Source: Escherichia coli (GTDB lineage: Bacteria > Pseudomonadota > Gammaproteobacteria > Enterobacterales > Enterobacteriaceae). From it: 64,000 nucleotides of DNA. Position 1 is the stretch's first letter; each line of letters opens with the position of its first letter. The stretch is from the NCBI RefSeq assembly GCF_003019035.1, contig NZ_CP027447.1; one strand, written 5' to 3'. Below, in pieces: positions 11,270 through 17,455 of the stretch. A program made the position numbers and the translations under genes. The notes under the pieces were generated by a model, which saw nothing but the letters and a program-made list of their open reading frames with translations, ran no database searches and had not been told where the DNA came from.

Positions 11270-12150
11270 ACACTCCTCGTCAGTATTCTGGCGGCCATTG
11301 CACTTAATCCCGGAGACATGCGGTTGAATGCTGTGCCGGCGGCGTTAAGCTGCCCGGAAACGGTATCCAGAGCACCTGCAATATTTCTTTTGTCCACACC
11401 ACTCAGCGCCGACTGCGCCTGCTGTACATACGTGGCTGCCTCACTGGCTGTTCTGGCCAGACTGATGGCATCGGGCATGGATTCAGAGAGTGCATTAAAC
11501 GCCGGAACACTTTTCCCCAGAGCTCCGGATATATTACCCAGTCCGCTCATCAGTCCCGGCACACGGGTCAGCGCGACAACGGGGTTACCCTTCATTTTCT
11601 GCGCCACCCGAACGGCACTGATAGTGGTCTGGAGTACAGACTGCGCCTGTTTCGCATAGTTGACGCCGTTACGGACGAACTGCGCCACCCCGGAAGGCGA
11701 TGGAACAGCACCAGATACGGCCCCGGCACCGGGAACCTGCCTGCGTATTGCCGGCGGTTGCAGAGGATTTTTCGGGTCACCGGTGTATTCCCGGAGAGAC
11801 ACGGTGGCACTGACAGCCAGCACGTTACCGGTGCTGTCTGTCTGCTCGCTGGTTGCGGTCACATCGGTAATCACGAACCAGCCGCGATAGTCACCGTTGC
11901 CGAAGACCAGCGCCAGTGCCTGATGGGCCTTCATGGCTGTTCGCACTCTCGCCAGCTCCACGTCGGGCACACAATAATGCTGATGGAAGACCAGGCTTAT
12001 CTGGATTTCGTCCAGCCTGTCGCCGACGAACTGCAGGCCGGGTTTACCCTCGATGCGGGCATGCTCCGCATAATCGACGCCAAACGTGGCCTCGAAGCCG
12101 TCCCAGTAGGTAATCAGTTCAAACTCAATATCACCCAGTACGGCAAACAT
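11266..12150 (-). CDS. Tail protein U-like / DNA circularisation protein N-like
   Basis: 294 aa; N-terminal ~130 aa resembles P2 gpU; Gly/Ala/Ser-rich C-terminal extension; directly downstream of the tape measure gene. Confidence 0.55.
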   Translation of the reverse strand: MFAVLGDIEFELITYWDGFEATFGVDYAEHARIEGKPGLQFVGDRLDEIQISLVFHQHYCVPDVELARVRTAMKAHQALALVFGNGDYRGWFVITDVTATSEQTDSTGNVLAVSATVSLREYTGDPKNPLQPPAIRRQVPGAGAVSGAVPSPSGVAQFVRNGVNYAKQAQSVLQTTISAVRVAQKMKGNPVVALTRVPGLMSGLGNISGALGKSVPAFNALSESMPDAISLARTASEAATYVQQAQSALSGVDKRNIAGALDTVSGQLNAAGTAFNRMSPGLSAMAARILTRSV

Positions 12151-14615
12151 CAGCTGTACTCCTTACGTTGTTTCTGAGCCAGCAGACGCTCCAGCATTTT
12201 TTCCAGCTCATGCAGGCTCATATTCAGGGCACCAGCCAGCCCGGCAGGCGCTGCGGTTTCCTTACCATTGAGGAAAAACTGAGGATTAAAGCTGACCTGG
12301 ATACCGCCAGACGCTCCACCGCCGGTTGCCGTTGCGCCACGGCCTGAATATCCGGCAGCCATGATTTCCGGCGACGGGATACGGGGAACATCCGGTGTCA
12401 TTTCAGCGGCCAGACGCTGCCCGGCCAGTGCAGCAAGCGGAGTGGTCCGTTGCAGGCCAATGGCGGCACCCTGCGCGATATTGTCACCAAAGCCTATAAA
12501 CACGCGACTCGGTGAATGGATGCCCAGCTTTTCGCTGAACCAGTCACTGATGCTGTCACCCATTCCGGTTATGCTGGTTTTCAGTGACTCCCATTTGTTT
12601 CTGATGCCATTTATCAGCCCGTCAATAAGATGACCACCGAAGTCGGTGAATTTCGCCGGCAAATCAACGCCGAGATATTTCAGCGCAGCCGCAAAGGCTT
12701 TATAAAGCAGACCTGCCGGAGACCAGTTAACCAGCAGTTTACCAATTCCCGCGATACCGCCGTTAAAGGCTTCCTGAATGTCAGCCCAGCGCTGTTTAAA
12801 CCAGCTACTGACCGCGCCCCAGTTGCGGTAGATAAGGTAAGCTGCTGCCGCGACGGCGGTGATAGCGAGACCGATGGGATTCATCATCAGCGCCCGGCCA
12901 ATCCAGAGAACGGCACGCCCGGCGCTCATAATTCCGCGAACCAGCCCCCCTGAGAGCACACCCCCCAGTGTTCTGGCTCCTCTGGCGACGGCACCAAAGC
13001 CTGTCACCAGCCAGCGGAGTTTACCGCCTTCCCCCAGTGCGAGCATCAGACGAAGCCAGTTGGCCCGAAGTAAAACAGCATTTTTCCAGACGCTTACAAA
13101 GGGGGAAATAAGGAGATTCAGCCCAAACTTGAGACCGATAGTGGCCATCCTGAAAGCGAGTAATGCGCCCACAACCTTTATGGTGCTGCTGACGAGCTGC
13201 GGATTTGCCGCTATCCATTTGCCGACGCTGTCCATTAAAGGAATAAATGTTTCACCCAACTGGAGCAAAGCCGGACGCAAGGATTGCCCGATGCTGATAG
13301 CAGAATCATTAAAGCCGATCTGCATTCTGCGCCAGCGACCTTCAAGCGTATCATTCTGCTTTGCAGCATCCTTATCCAGGGTAGACATTGCAGCCGGAGC
13401 ATTCATTTCCTGCTTACTGGAAAGGTATTTATCCCAGCCCTGTCGCATTGACAGTAAATGGTTGACAGTCTGAATATCGGTAAAGACCTCAGCCAGACCA
13501 AATGACTCCATGAGTTTCTGCTGACCTTCCTGATCGCCTCTTGCTCCTGCAGCTTTCCATTGCTGCAAAAACGCTTTGCCTTTACTGTCGATAAAACGGT
13601 TGGCAATCATCAGTGAAGCTTCGTACTGCGAAAAACCCTGAGCGACGTAATTCTGCATTGACCCCGGGTAATCCACCCCGGCTTTAGCATATTTCTGGAT
13701 GGTATCTCCGCGGCCCATTGCTGCCAGCCAGTTGGACATATTGGTGACCGCTTCCTCTGCAGAGCCACTACCTTTACCGACCTCCAGACTGGCAACAATC
13801 TGGGTAATCGCATCTTTTCCATAAATACCACGAGCAGCGAAGGCTTTAGCCATACCGGGTAATGCTTTTGCCATATCCTTCAGCTCAAATGACCCAAGTT
13901 TGGCTCCTGTTGCCGCAATACCAAATGCCTGTTCAAGTTCTTTCGCATCAGTGATTCTGAGTGCATCGCTGAAGGCATAAGTCATTTTGGCAAGGTCGGT
14001 CATATCGGCTTTGGTTGCTGTAGCGGTCTTTCCAAGCATCTCTGCAAACGTTGCTGCCCGTTCGGGGGCCATACCATCAGCAACTAATTGTCCGACTCCC
14101 CCTAACAGAGACTCCTGCAGTTGGTTAACCTTCAGCGAGGCCTGTCTGATAGCCAGGCCAATTGCACGTTCCTGTTTTGCATCCAGGTCTCCTGTGACAC
14201 TGATATCCCGTAACTGTGATTCAAACGAGGCATATTGTTTAACCGAGGCCATGACCGGTGCGCCCAGCGTTCTGCCAATAGCATAGGTTTCTGCACCCTG
14301 ACCATAGAGCGCCAGGCGGTTAGCCTTCAACGCATCACCGGTGGCTGATACTGCTGACAGACGGCGCTGCTGACGTTCAATTTGCTCCATGGTGCGGCTT
14401 ACCCGCAGCAACTCGCTGTTGAGATGCTGCATCCGGGAAGAACCCAGTTGACCATAACGTTCTGTTGCCCGGGTTAAGGCATTCTGGCGTTCCTGCAGAC
14501 GGCGGGAGGTATCACCAAGGGAATCAAGGGCGCGTCGGGTGCCACTGACGGCTGAGCGGAAGCTGCTCCCGACAATGCCGCCAATAATGACGCCGACTGA
14601 AAATTCACTGGCCAC
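12150..14615 (-). CDS. Tail tape measure protein
   Basis: 821 aa, alpha-helical N-terminus and Gly-rich hydrophobic central segments; downstream of the chaperone pair, as in Mu and P2. Confidence 0.8.
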   Translation of the reverse strand: MASEFSVGVIIGGIVGSSFRSAVSGTRRALDSLGDTSRRLQERQNALTRATERYGQLGSSRMQHLNSELLRVSRTMEQIERQQRRLSAVSATGDALKANRLALYGQGAETYAIGRTLGAPVMASVKQYASFESQLRDISVTGDLDAKQERAIGLAIRQASLKVNQLQESLLGGVGQLVADGMAPERAATFAEMLGKTATATKADMTDLAKMTYAFSDALRITDAKELEQAFGIAATGAKLGSFELKDMAKALPGMAKAFAARGIYGKDAITQIVASLEVGKGSGSAEEAVTNMSNWLAAMGRGDTIQKYAKAGVDYPGSMQNYVAQGFSQYEASLMIANRFIDSKGKAFLQQWKAAGARGDQEGQQKLMESFGLAEVFTDIQTVNHLLSMRQGWDKYLSSKQEMNAPAAMSTLDKDAAKQNDTLEGRWRRMQIGFNDSAISIGQSLRPALLQLGETFIPLMDSVGKWIAANPQLVSSTIKVVGALLAFRMATIGLKFGLNLLISPFVSVWKNAVLLRANWLRLMLALGEGGKLRWLVTGFGAVARGARTLGGVLSGGLVRGIMSAGRAVLWIGRALMMNPIGLAITAVAAAAYLIYRNWGAVSSWFKQRWADIQEAFNGGIAGIGKLLVNWSPAGLLYKAFAAALKYLGVDLPAKFTDFGGHLIDGLINGIRNKWESLKTSITGMGDSISDWFSEKLGIHSPSRVFIGFGDNIAQGAAIGLQRTTPLAALAGQRLAAEMTPDVPRIPSPEIMAAGYSGRGATATGGGASGGIQVSFNPQFFLNGKETAAPAGLAGALNMSLHELEKMLERLLAQKQRKEYS

Positions 14616-14707
14616 GGTGGCTATCCTCTGAAAGCAAAAAAACGGAAGGGAAGTGTCTGAACCCCATGCAGAACAGCCGCGACTGGCGGCTGTTAAGTGA
14701 TACGTTG

Positions 14708-14965
14708 TTACTGATTGTCGCCGAACTCGCTTTTGATTTGCTCTTCAGCCTGCTCCAGCCACATCTCCAGATCGTCAGTATCGAGGGCATCAATCTCCCC
14801 CGGCTGAAACCTGAACCATCTCGCCAGCAGGCCCTGCGCCTGCATCAGTGTTTTTGTCGCTCTTGCCCAGCCCAGTGATTTTCTGAAATCGTTTCTGCAG
14901 CTCCATATAGTCGGCAAGATCCATGTTATCGAGGTCTTCCGGGAGGATACCGGTGCTACGGGCAA
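14708..14965 (-). CDS. Overlapping ORF, candidate frameshift extension of the tail assembly chaperone
   Basis: 85 codons in the +1 frame relative to 14790..15131, overlapping its 3' half and ending ~90 bp before the tape measure start. Confidence 0.4.
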   Translation of the reverse strand: MPVAPVSSRKTSITWILPTIWSCRNDFRKSLGWARATKTLMQAQGLLARWFRFQPGEIDALDTDDLEMWLEQAEEQIKSEFGDNQ

Positions 14966-15131
14966 TCAGTGGTTCGTCCCAGTCTGCCGGGTCTTTGTTG
15001 ATTTTGCGCACCTGCTTCAGGTCTTTAACTGTCAGGCGTTTCAGTTCAATCTGTTCAATTCTGGTACCTGCAGCAGTGGTGAAAGGATAAGACAGCGTAA
15101 AAGTATCGGACTGGGTCTGTGACATGATCAT
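14790..15131 (-). CDS. Tail assembly chaperone (P2 gpE / Mu gp41-like)
   Basis: 113 aa ORF immediately upstream of the tape measure gene. Confidence 0.6.
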   Translation of the reverse strand: MIMSQTQSDTFTLSYPFTTAAGTRIEQIELKRLTVKDLKQVRKINKDPADWDEPLIARSTGILPEDLDNMDLADYMELQKRFQKITGLGKSDKNTDAGAGPAGEMVQVSAGGD

Positions 15132-15222
15132 ACTCCTTTGTAAATTCAGAGCAGTATGTCTGGCGGTGGACGTGACGGATATTAAAGGGGATTAAGAAGA
15201 AGGGGCCGGAGCCCCTGTGATG

Positions 15223-15504
15223 TCAGCAAGTGCGAAAACCCTTGCAGTTACGCAGGAAAGCGATGAGAAGCGCCTTTCCCTCAGATTTGCCGATGCCGGA
15301 GAACCAGTGGTCGGGCGGCTCCCATGCTTCAATCAAATCGGCCAGTTTTCGGGCCTTTGAACGTGTGCAGTCAATCGGGTCATTGGTTTTACGGGTATTA
15401 AAAAGGGTTTCCACCCCCGGAATATCAAGGAGGGTAAACCACGTACCATTTGACATGCCCAGTGACGCACATCGCCCTCCTTTGTCAGTCAGTTCAACAC
15501 TCAC
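15223..15504 (-). CDS. Hypothetical protein
   Basis: 93-aa ORF between the tube and chaperone genes; no recognisable motif. Confidence 0.3.
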   Translation of the reverse strand: MSVELTDKGGRCASLGMSNGTWFTLLDIPGVETLFNTRKTNDPIDCTRSKARKLADLIEAWEPPDHWFSGIGKSEGKALLIAFLRNCKGFRTC

Positions 15505-15506
15505 CG

Positions 15507-16028
15507 TCAGCCCCCGATATTGATCCGATAGTCAGTCAGTTGATCAACGCCACCGACGCGGAAGATGTTGGCCAGATAGTCCAGTTGCAGCAACTCTTCA
15601 CCATCCAGTACCTGTCTGATATACGTGCAGGTGAAGCTACTGGAGAACTCGGCGTTCTCGTGCTGTTTAAACGTCCCCAGCGGGTTCTTCTTGAACATAA
15701 TTGTCAGGAAGGTGACCAGCGGGATTTCGTCGATCAGCCCCTGCGAGCTGTAGCGCTGGACGCTGGAGCGACACTGCAGCGCCAGCGACCTGTACGGGTT
15801 CGCGGCAGACAGCATCGCATCGCGGTAAAAGCTGTTCCATTTGATTTCGCCTTCCAGTTTGTCAAAACCAGCCGGGAGTTCCACCTTACCCACCATCCCC
15901 AGTGCCTTGTGCTCCTGCATAATCATGGAGACATCGGGGAGTTTAACCTCCTCAGCCCGTCCCAGCAGGTTAGTACCATCCAGATAGATGTTGGCATTCG
16001 TGATTCGGTTTATCTCAATCTTTGACAT
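15507..16028 (-). CDS. Tail tube protein (Mu M / P2 FII-like)
   Basis: 173 aa directly downstream of the sheath gene. Confidence 0.7.
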   Translation of the reverse strand: MSKIEINRITNANIYLDGTNLLGRAEEVKLPDVSMIMQEHKALGMVGKVELPAGFDKLEGEIKWNSFYRDAMLSAANPYRSLALQCRSSVQRYSSQGLIDEIPLVTFLTIMFKKNPLGTFKQHENAEFSSSFTCTYIRQVLDGEELLQLDYLANIFRVGGVDQLTDYRINIGG

Positions 16029-17455
16029 CAGTTGCCCCCTTTCAGGGTTAACAGGTATTCCGAGGTGATCTCAGTCTCAAACGTCAGTCGCTCCAGCGGC
16101 GGTGGTGGCGTATATTTGTAGCTCAGCAACAGGTGCCCGGCGGCCAGCTCCGTTTCCGGATTGCGGGCCGGATCAAACCAGCAACGGAAGCCCAGTACCG
16201 CGCCATCACCAGTCATTTTGCGACCGTAAGCGTTGACCGACTCCGTCAGTGCATCAATCAGCGCCTGAGTAATCGGCATGTCGATGTACTGCTGGCTGAA
16301 GTAACGAATGGACTCATTGATCACATCACCGGTGCGGCGAACGTTCTCAAAGTTACGCATATGGGTGACCGTTGGCCATGCTGCCGTCCGGTTACCCCAC
16401 AGACGAAGGCCGCTGCCGTAACTGCTGAATACCGTGGTGATCCCCTGTTCGTTAAGCAGGTTCACCTCGCTCTGCGGATCGTCAATCATTGCCGACAGCT
16501 GGCGCTCCACGCCGGTGATCCCCAGAATCTCCTGATTGGAGGATGACCACCAGTACCCTTTGTCCAGGTCGACTCTGGCACGCAGGCCCGCCGCACGCTG
16601 GCTCAGTGGCTCCAGACGCTCCGTGTTCGTCACCGGGTCATATACCTTCACATGCGGGTAGCACAGGCGGACACGGTCAGAGCTGGTATTAAAGTTAATG
16701 GTGCCTTCCGGGCCACGTCCCGCCAGAGCCTGCGCAAAAGTGGTACCAACCGGCGCATCAATATAGGTTACTGCTCCCAGTTTCTCAGCCATGGCGATAA
16801 GCTCAACCGAGACGCTGTTCTGGGTGCAGAATACCGGAGCAATCAGGATTTTGGCGAAGTAGCCAAACAGGTTAAAACTGTCGTTAAGCAGCTTCATGCC
16901 GGTACGGTTGCCTGCAGCGTTAACGGTACCGATGATATCAGCCGGGGTGACTTTGGTCGGATCAGCATAGTTATAGCTGGCCTTCACCGTTGCATCTGCA
17001 GCAATGCTTTTACCCAGGTTAGTAATCACCCCGGTCTGTGCATCAAGCGAGTAGTCCTGACCTTCAACATAAGGCTGACCGTCGCTGTCCGGTTTCAGTA
17101 CCAGCTGCGCGACCACCGGATTAGCCAGCCGGGCTCTGCCTGTCGCCTTGTCGAACGACACATTCTCACTGACCACAGCGGTTTTATGCACAGACGGATC
17201 GAGTACGTTAATGACCAGAACGGTGCCTGCACCATGGTCATAAATCGCATCCAGCGCCTGCGGAATGGTAAAGCCGGTGAACTGGCTGCCAAATGCCGCT
17301 GCGTCTTTCTCAGACAGGCACTGTACCAGCGTATTGACATCCCCCATTGGTGCGGTACCAATCAGGCCAATAACGGCAGATTTCACCGTTTTAACCGGGC
17401 GGGCACCGTTTTCCACTTCAATGGTTTCGACGCCATGCAGATAGTTAGCTGCCAT
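16028..17455 (-). CDS. Contractile tail sheath protein (Mu L / P2 FI-like)
   Basis: 475 aa; size and position typical of a sheath protein. Confidence 0.8.
   Translation of the reverse strand: MAANYLHGVETIEVENGARPVKTVKSAVIGLIGTAPMGDVNTLVQCLSEKDAAAFGSQFTGFTIPQALDAIYDHGAGTVLVINVLDPSVHKTAVVSENVSFDKATGRARLANPVVAQLVLKPDSDGQPYVEGQDYSLDAQTGVITNLGKSIAADATVKASYNYADPTKVTPADIIGTVNAAGNRTGMKLLNDSFNLFGYFAKILIAPVFCTQNSVSVELIAMAEKLGAVTYIDAPVGTTFAQALAGRGPEGTINFNTSSDRVRLCYPHVKVYDPVTNTERLEPLSQRAAGLRARVDLDKGYWWSSSNQEILGITGVERQLSAMIDDPQSEVNLLNEQGITTVFSSYGSGLRLWGNRTAAWPTVTHMRNFENVRRTGDVINESIRYFSQQYIDMPITQALIDALTESVNAYGRKMTGDGAVLGFRCWFDPARNPETELAAGHLLLSYKYTPPPPLERLTFETEITSEYLLTLKGGN

Follow-up and report, generated by a model that had tools for sequence, protein, structure and literature searches.

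The tail region of a prophage in Escherichia coli contains two overlapping minus-strand ORFs that, as judged from sequence comparison, probably represent the tail assembly chaperone pair of a BcepMu-like phage, homologous to gpE and gpE+E' of phage P2. A programmed frameshift that would join them into an E+E'-like fusion protein of about 138 aa is well supported, and the likely event is a +1 slip of tRNA-Phe at CGA_UUU_C, positions 14891-14885. All positions refer to the window, i.e., the whole stretch of 64,000 nt that was analysed. The relevant features are the following:

16028..17455, minus strand: tail sheath gene, P2 FI-like (Pfam Phage_sheath_1 and Phage_sheath_1C)
15507..16028, minus strand: tail tube gene, P2 FII-like (Pfam Phage_tube, E = 2.9e-53)
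15223-15504, minus strand: small DUF7739 ORF between the tube and chaperone genes
14790..15125, minus strand: short chaperone gene, gpE-like, frame 0, 111 aa (Pfam Phage_TAC_7)
14708..14965, minus strand: +1-frame ORF of 85 aa, called mechanically with a TTG start (ORF listing)
14885..14891, minus strand: predicted +1 shift site CGA_UUU_C (CGA 14891-14889, TTT 14888-14886, C 14885)
14708..14884, minus strand: putative E'-like extension, frame +1 after the shift (58 codons, 14884-14711, and TAA 14710-14708)
14848..14858, minus strand: A-run GACAAAAACAC, rejected candidate site, not conserved in relatives
14797..14801, minus strand: G5 run within CCGGGGGAG (14803-14795), rejected candidate site just before the frame-0 stop
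12150..14615, minus strand: tape measure gene, GTG start, 821 aa (Pfam PhageMin_Tail, E = 1.6e-15)

The prophage combines a Mu-like head module with a P2-like tail module. The window DNA shares 99.9% identity with an E. coli chromosome and 83-92% with phages that have been classified as BcepMu-like or described as such; parts of the region match 641 of 5,426 complete E. coli genomes, and homologues are present in Salmonella, Pectobacterium, Burkholderia, Ralstonia and Pseudomonas phages. Genes similar to those for gpU, gpX and gpD follow downstream of the tape measure gene (Pfam, ORF list). The tape measure annotation is shared by relatives of 12150..14615, and the tape measure protein is the substrate of the chaperone.

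A sequence-only reading of this DNA had described the two ORFs as overlapping chaperone genes, and its geometry is confirmed. Both appear in the ORF list, 14790..15131 with 113 aa counted from its first ATG and the second at 14708..14965, and the 176 nt that they share (14790-14965) correspond to the 3' half of the first one. The second ORF was correctly assigned to the +1 frame: the distances 15131-14891 (240) and 14965-14887 (78) are both multiples of 3, with TTT and TTC offset by one base. It ends, as noted there, just before the tape measure gene, with TAA at 14710-14708 and 92 nt left to the GTG start. Pfam assignments of the flanking genes place the pair between the tube and tape measure genes, i.e., in the proposed tail assembly chaperone position. 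This is the arrangement of two overlapping ORFs in the tube to tape measure interval seen in the lambda G/GT type, except that one extra ORF, DUF7739, intervenes; chaperone frameshift pairs of this type were reportedly treated by Xu et al. in 2004.

The identity of the frame-0 gene product is clear. The protein encoded by 14790..15125 matches Pfam family PF10109 Phage_TAC_7, comprising tail assembly chaperones E / 41 / 14, over profile positions 1-76 of 79 with E = 1.5e-22 and 79.8 bits, the curated gathering score being 25, and 10 of 10 diverse relatives match the same family. Among the PHROGs its counterpart is phrog_166, "tail protein" (E = 2.9e-32), while NCBIfam contains no family for either ORF and a PDB sequence search found no solved relative. 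Translation is likely to start at the second ATG, at 15125 (111 aa), rather than at the ATG at 15131 (113 aa), as evidenced by the presence of GGAG 7 nt before the second ATG and by the 336-nt form, "phage tail assembly protein," annotated by PGAP in a 99.9% identical E. coli genome.

An 85-aa ORF in an alternative frame proves nothing on its own, as the ORF list contains 66 of 40 aa or more within 8 kb here; it is conservation in relatives that raises the +1 ORF above chance. Its core, LLARWFRFQP (14830-14801), has each residue invariant or nearly so among 88 unique relatives, despite N-terminal domains that are only about 42% identical. The window peptide resembles Pfam PF06528 Phage_P2_GpE over profile positions 4-36 of 37, with E = 0.003-0.01 and 15.8-17.5 bits, below the cut-off of 23; a match at E <= 0.01 was obtained for 7 of 10 relatives, the best one at 1.4e-5. 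Alignment of the predicted fusion with P2 gpE+E' by hhalign is collinear over 122 columns with E = 0.0013, at a probability of only 19%. Among the PHROGs the E' part matches phrog_8286 (E = 3e-32), filed under "unknown function." The earlier proposal of a chaperone pair made up of these ORFs is supported, with Phage_TAC_7 in the first and a P2 E'-like peptide in the second. The 5' part of the +1 ORF (14965-14888) is open by chance and predicted to be untranslated; the point at which the +1 frame becomes open varies among relatives.

Relatives were collected as three sets: 70 IMG/VR loci, 43 loci from representative bacterial genomes (Enterobacterales, Burkholderiales and one alphaproteobacterial MAG), and 80 more IMG/VR loci found with BcepMu- and Pseudomonas-phage-type sequences as seeds. 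All 48 unique close relatives have E' in the +1 frame, as do all 41 genome loci that contain both parts (Gamma-, Beta- and Alphaproteobacteria) and 70 unique loci of the BcepMu/Pseudomonas type. The conservation of the second ORF in homologous phages, suggested as a check on the original reading, is thus confirmed across about 160 unique relatives, and the frame relation demanding a +1 or -2 shift is kept in all but two of them. The exceptions are Pasteurella phage AFS-2018a, in which the extension is in the -1 frame behind a G_GGA_AAG heptamer, and a metagenomic contig (L150) with both parts in a single frame.

The frame under selection was determined with 63 unique ungapped sequences, by counting codon differences that involve a single-base change and taking the synonymous fraction in each frame. 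This fraction is 0.71 in frame 0 and 0.15 in frame +1 over the 120 nt before the TTT codon, 0.27 and 0.52 over the 63-nt linker after it, and 0.10 and 0.71 in the E' core. Purifying selection thus passes from frame 0 to frame +1 at a single point. Two frame-0 stop codons recur in relatives beyond this point, TAG 27 nt and TAG 69 nt past the last base of the CAG that comes after TTT, and the substitutions behind both are synonymous in frame +1. The selection switch, the frame-0 stops that are silent in frame +1, and the lack of a conserved start for E' together support a recoding event rather than a separate gene.

Independent synthesis of E' as a small protein with its own initiation, e.g., at ATG 14846-14844, is quite unlikely on these data. 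It would agree with the 45-46 aa ORF called by PGAP in two E. coli relatives as "GpE family phage tail protein," with the existence of E'-only families in PHROGs (phrog_8286), and with the position of the in-frame ATG in the window, five codons before LLARWF. This ATG, however, is replaced by ACG in the E. coli lineage that is most common, and PGAP resorted to CTG there. Among the 88 unique relatives there is no conserved start codon or Shine-Dalgarno sequence for E': an ATG occurs in the linker of 48, at scattered positions, an SD-like motif occurs in 8, and 10 have no ATG, GTG or TTG at all. Furthermore, the +1 frame is open back to TTT_C in every relative and the offset is fixed at +1, while for P2 it is proven that E' arises solely as part of a fusion protein (GenBank AF063097 annotation; PMC3931495).

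Stop codons in relatives also delimit the place of the shift. In the latest cases (L073, L078, L112, L113, L120) the +1 frame becomes open 11 nt ahead of the end of TTT, and in the earliest ones (L121, L115, L116, L122, L071, L146-L157) frame 0 meets a stop 15-21 nt beyond it, which confines the event to about 30 nt, from -11 to +15..21 nt around TTT. TTT followed by C is the sole motif within this permitted stretch that allows +1 re-pairing in all members. No X_XXY_YYZ heptamer is present in the overlap, and the frame relation rules out a -1 shift. A -2 shift at CGA_UUU_C is implausible, since it would leave UUU facing GAU and CAG facing UUC without re-pairing.

This motif is invariant at the codon level, or nearly so, in the codon alignment of 88 unique sequences of the window's clade. 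The Phe codon at the site is TTT in 87 of 87 sequences, while two other conserved Phe positions are TTT/TTC in 44/43 and 72/14 cases. The preceding Arg codon is CGA in 78 of 79, while another invariant Arg is encoded by CGC (54), CGT (27), CGA (4) or CGG (3). The base 3' of TTT is always C, although the residue varies (Q, H, L, R). TTT at the site is kept even in GC-rich hosts and in loci where it makes up 3-15% of Phe codons; with local codon use as the background, the naive probability of finding it in all 34 representatives is about 1e-17, a figure that assumes independent lineages and a crude codon background.

More distant relatives mostly share the UUU_C part. The homologous point reads UCC_UUU_CGC in BcepMu, and GUG_UUU_CGG and GCA_UUU_CAA in two Pseudomonas phages. 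One in-frame UUU_C is present in the overlap of 63 of 70 unique loci of the BcepMu/Pseudomonas clade, as UUU_CGN in 62 and UUU_CAG in one. Seven unique loci, a distant Pseudomonas-phage-like subclade, carry UUG where the others have UUU, although their E' is intact and no other candidate site stands out in them; UUU_C is thus not strictly universal in the chaperone family. A conserved slippery sequence, as in the lambda G/GT type, is nevertheless provided by UUU_C, whose slipperiness in vivo would be expected from the literature on such sites.

The sequence-only reading had drawn attention to an A-rich string in the overlap. The string GACAAAAACAC does exist, although its true position is 14858..14848, some 8-10 nt away from where it had been placed, but it does not hold up as a slip site. 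A +1 slip of tRNA-Lys at GAC_AAA_AAC (14858-14848), with the junction ...GKSDKTLMQAQ..., would benefit from perfect Lys re-pairing on A_AAA_A within the overlap and is extremely improbable nonetheless. Close relatives read GACGAAAAC or AACCAGGGC at this point, frame-0 stops occur at or before the run in L005, L027 and L071, and the +1-frame Trp codon upstream of it (TGG 14869-14867) is invariant, selection on frame +1 being already established there. Where the window and KP12 differ within the run, the changes are silent in frame +1 and alter the amino acid in frame 0.

The G5 run directly before the frame-0 stop is another rejected candidate: in KP12, as in one E. coli isolate, a frame-0 TAG lies 10 nt upstream of the run. 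A shift of -2, as in Mu, or of +1 on CC_GGG_GGA_G (14803-14795) would produce the junction ...SAGG joined to EIDALD..., the +1 and -2 products differing by one Gly (...VSAG(G)EIDALD...). The run resembles the verified Mu site CGG_GGG_CGA, occupies the usual place before the stop, and is invariant among the six closest sequences. It is excluded as the conserved site since many relatives terminate frame 0 before it (21 of the 48 unique close ones), and the run is missing from many others, which read CCGAGTGAG. A shift at this point would omit LLARWFRFQP, the most conserved part of E'; selection on frame +1 already acts over about 70 nt upstream, and the run itself is explained by the coding of Pro-Gly-Glu in frame +1 downstream of the E' core. 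We consider this site very unlikely.

A closer competitor to CGA_UUU_C lies a few codons downstream. Over the first five codons past UUU, conservation is still higher in frame 0 than in frame +1, where it starts at Gly-Trp; the Thr codon at +12 shows 636 synonymous versus 5 non-synonymous pair differences in frame 0. This pattern fits a variable fusion linker, and equally fits a shift several codons later at GGG_C (ACT GGG CTG, with GGG at 14873-14871). A +1 slip of tRNA-Gly there, from GGG to GGC, would be followed by the conserved +1 Trp (TGG 14869-14867), giving the junction ...RFQKITG joined to WARATK... and the peptide ...RFQKITGWARATK..., and would place the shift exactly where frame 0 ceases to be better conserved and the +1 residues G and W begin to be. 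GGG_N permits Gly-to-Gly re-pairing, and GGG occupies this codon in most enterobacterial relatives, so that the site would fit the enterobacterial data almost as well as UUU_C. It ranks lower, and is on the whole unlikely, since in many relatives (L066, L073, L079, L090, L096, L106-L112, L116, L117) the codon is GGC, GGT, GGA, AGC, GAT or GTG, with re-pairing impossible, and since the invariance of TTT and CGA would be left unexplained. GGG is also often missing from those relatives whose frame 0 ends 15-21 nt past TTT (L116, L121, L122).

No downstream stimulatory RNA structure was found for CGA_UUU_C: RNAalifold on 24 diverse sequences yielded a 4-bp invariant hairpin with no covariation. 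A Shine-Dalgarno-like stimulator upstream was considered and rejected, because GGAG 14 nt upstream is present in the window only, related lineages having CTGCAGTTACAG by eye. The frame-0 A-site codon after UUU is CAG in the window's clade and CGN in the betaproteobacterial and Pseudomonas relatives; CAG is not a rare codon in E. coli. As the usual +1 stimulators, a slow A-site codon and a conserved RNA structure, are absent in the window's clade, the efficiency of the shift may be very low.

The following mechanism is proposed for CGA_UUU_C. Most ribosomes would stay in frame 0, make the 111-aa chaperone and stop at 14792-14790, while a minority would shift by +1 at CGA_UUU_C (14891-14885). 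Peptidyl-tRNA-Phe would re-pair from UUU to UUC, and decoding would resume at AGA (14884), resulting in a fusion of about 138 aa made up of 80 N-terminal chaperone residues and 58 E'-like residues. The predicted junction joins ...LQKRF to RKSLGWAR..., and the corresponding Glu-C junction peptide would be LQKRFRKSLGWARATKTLMQAQGLLARWFRFQPGE. In published work on a UUU_C site, mutagenesis was consistent with P-site tRNA-Phe slippage modulated in its efficiency by the 5' codon, and weak E-site pairing has been proposed to favour shifting (PMC3498833). The conserved upstream CGA would probably raise the shift frequency, possibly from the E site through easier tRNA release. CGA is decoded through weak inosine:A wobble. 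Alternatively, with CGA in the P site, Phe-tRNA might bind out of frame to UUC, which would yield the same protein; CGA is among the few permissive P-site codons in Ty3-type shifting (PMC5009743).

By analogy with lambda gpG/gpGT (functional model in PMC5009743) and P2 E/E+E' (PMC3931495), the tape measure protein would be coated by the short form, through the N-terminal domain that both products have in common, and the tube protein would be recruited by the less frequent extension, the long form acting as a bridge to it. If the rare extension recruits the tube protein, the shift frequency would set the ratio of the two proteins.

P2 gpE/gpE+E' is the closest comparator of the window pair, rather than the Mu chaperone pair with which a comparison had initially been suggested. 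The gene order sheath, tube, E/E', tape measure, U, X/D is that of the FETUD tail operon of P2, and the order of Pfam domains, Phage_TAC_7 followed by Phage_P2_GpE, is also the same, the second domain of the window being below the cut-off (17 versus 23 bits). The shift site of P2 and the one predicted here both coincide with the C-terminal end of the TAC_7 domain and with a Phe codon or its neighbour, and in the alignment the P2 -1 site T_TTT_TTG is within about three residues of the window's site Phe. The systems differ in that P2 shifts by -1 on a canonical U6G heptamer, whereas the window has a +1 relation, no heptamer, and the candidate CGA_UUU_C; moreover, E' of P2 overlaps the tape measure gene, while that of the window ends 92 nt before it.

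Similarity to Mu gp41 includes the location before the tape measure gene, a second frame at +1/-2, and a weak TAC_7 match of Mu gp41. The -2 shift of Mu gp41 at CGG_GGG_CGA is verified (PMID 15469818, as cited in GenBank AF083977). Mu gp41, however, belongs to Pfam Gp41_Mu (PF23746, 116 bits), while TAC_7 is the only Pfam match of the window chaperone and Gp41_Mu is absent from it; the extensions have no detectable similarity. The combination of a Gp41_Mu domain with a conserved G-run before the stop, characteristic of the Mu type, is not found here: the G-run is present in the window, but relatives stop upstream of it or have no run. Judged by homology, the window pair belongs to the P2 E/E' group rather than to the Mu gp41 group.

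With lambda gpG/gpGT, which uses a -1 shift at G_GGA_AAG, the window pair would share the scheme of a short abundant chaperone and a rare extended form encoded in the interval from major tail to tape measure genes; the gpG/gpGT ratio is set by shift efficiency (PMC5009743). There is no sequence similarity, and the direction and site type of the shift differ. Pasteurella phage AFS-2018a, a relative within the window's family, has exactly the lambda heptamer G_GGA_AAG with a -1 relation.

As regards the site itself, the closest parallels are the UUU_Y / UUU_CGN class of +1 sites, known from E. coli UUU_Ynn, Yersinia YopN-TyeA and influenza A PA-X (UCC_UUU_CGU), in which RNA structure is not obligatory and the codon 5' of UUU matters (PMC5009743; PMC3498833). 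The predicted site shares with them a P-site UUU followed by C, with Phe re-pairing on UUC, and the sites of BcepMu-type relatives, UCC_UUU_CGC or NNN_UUU_CGG, are almost the same as the influenza cassette. In contrast to this class, the window's clade has CAG after UUU, not a rare CGN or a stop, and its conserved partner codon is CGA on the 5' side.

The BcepMu record (GenBank AY539836) can be re-examined in this light. Its gp41 is a TAC_7 chaperone and gp42 is an E'-like ORF in the +1 frame, but the record names gp42 the lambda G analogue and gp43 the slippage-derived T analogue, thus joining the second part with a third ORF and pairing the wrong ORFs; the window has no counterpart of gp43. 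In our reading, it is gp41 of BcepMu that would be extended into gp42, by ribosomes slipping +1 on UCC_UUU_CGC.

Different phages are known to use -1, -2 or +1 shifts for their tail chaperones (PMC5009743), the +1 type in a few of them; together with the documented UUU_C +1 sites, this means that the kind of system is already known. A description of this site and direction for this chaperone family was not found in a literature search that was thin on subscription papers, so that an earlier description is possible. What is unrecorded seems to be the site and direction for this very common family, in which a -1 shift or the proposed +1 shift would be used at nearly the same position.

The enterobacterial CGA_UUU_C and the NNN_UUU_CGN of BcepMu/Pseudomonas phages may form one widespread, structure-free, selected +1 cassette of proteobacterial myophage chaperones, stimulated by an adjacent CGN, within a family that switched direction while keeping the site; we put this forward tentatively, as a generalization that could well prove either way. 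Such a cassette would be the prokaryotic counterpart of the influenza PA-X / amalgavirus UUU_CGN class. Its stimulator would be CGN, either 5' of UUU, where a tRNA-Arg with inosine:A wobble would occupy the E or P site, or 3' of it, acting in the A site. The same family shifts by -1 (P2, Pasteurella phage) at nearly the same codon, so that it would have changed direction in the course of evolution with the site kept. For frameshifting research, CGA_UUU_C itself would be a minimal +1 site of natural bacterial origin at which the effect of the 5' codon can be tested.

In current annotations, E' is treated as a separate "GpE family" small protein with an ATG or CTG start or is omitted altogether, as in several relatives, and one first gene was flagged by PGAP as a pseudogene with an "internal stop" in frame 0. 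A defined seven-base signal would let annotators join the chaperone genes correctly. Databases also contain "fused" proteins of 138 aa, which were set aside as evidence for the frameshift: their junctions lie at assorted homopolymer runs (A5, G3-4, G5) and most of them come from raw-read assemblies, and these fusions are therefore treated as indel errors.

In E. coli E30 (locus L005) and the related locus L027, a frame-0 TAG lies nine codons past the predicted +1 shift site (columns 286–288 of A1, the alignment of relatives), and because of this stop PGAP flags the chaperone gene as a pseudogene with an "internal stop." The substitution creating the TAG is silent in the +1 frame. The predicted fusion of the chaperone with its +1-frame extension E' would remain intact, and the short form would lose just its dispensable tail.

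In BcepMu (L125, AY539836, 4603–5364), the GenBank record names gp42 the lambda G analogue and gp43 the slippage product of gp42. Contrary to this naming, gp42 is the E'-like +1-frame extension of gp41, which carries UCC_UUU_CGC. An Arg-rich ORF that overlaps the start of the tape measure gene, gp43 is possibly spurious.

Ten database proteins of 138–144 aa (P0001–P0010) resemble natural E+E' fusions. Their frames are joined at differing homopolymer runs (A5, G3–4, G5), and some exit the frame again; the sources are mostly read-level assemblies, and the set includes the NCBI protein ECZU08_32630. These proteins appear to reflect indel errors and not biology. In L150 (IMGVR_UViG_3300002920_000058, about 900–1290) the chaperone and E' form a single continuous ORF, differing from its sibling L158 by one base some 24 nt 3' of UUU_C. 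Either the fusion is natural and constitutive, or the contig contains an error.

Seven loci (L181, L185, L188, L189, L196, L202, and L203) form a subclade reading GAG GTG TTG CGG GAA ATG (about 1100–1200 in each), with UUG at the position of the siblings' UUU. E' remains intact in the +1 frame in all of them, and no obvious re-pairing site is present in these loci. The predicted UUU_C slip would leave any fusion made there unexplained.

The chaperone of Pasteurella phage AFS-2018a (L077) belongs to the same family as that of the window, and the E'-like part is in the -1 frame, immediately 3' of G_GGA_AAG TAA (about 1720–1760). G_GGA_AAG is the lambda-type heptamer. The annotation comprises one "tail assembly protein," without a joined product.

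Three further features flank the chaperone gene and E':
14672–14694, minus strand, 9-bp perfect hairpin after the E' stop and before the tape measure start
15201–15216, minus strand, terminator-like GC hairpin separating the DUF7739 ORF from the chaperone gene
15223–15504, minus strand, 93-aa ORF between the tube and chaperone genes, with a weak DUF7739 match

The first hairpin has arms AACAGCCGC and GCGGCTGTT and the loop CAGTC, with no T-run 3' of it. Five relatives conserve the stem but differ in the loop (CAGTC, CAGTA, CCCTC, CACAC). Possible roles for the hairpin are in RNA stability or processing, or as a weak attenuator before the tape measure gene. The second hairpin consists of AGGGGCTCCGGCCCCT followed by TCTTCTTAAT, and might cause the chaperone and tape measure genes to be transcribed less than those for sheath and tube.

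The inserted 93-aa ORF matches phrog_1239 (E = 5e-48), a family of unknown function, and is also carried by close E. coli and Klebsiella relatives. BcepMu has no gene annotated at this place; in P2, E lies directly 5' of T.
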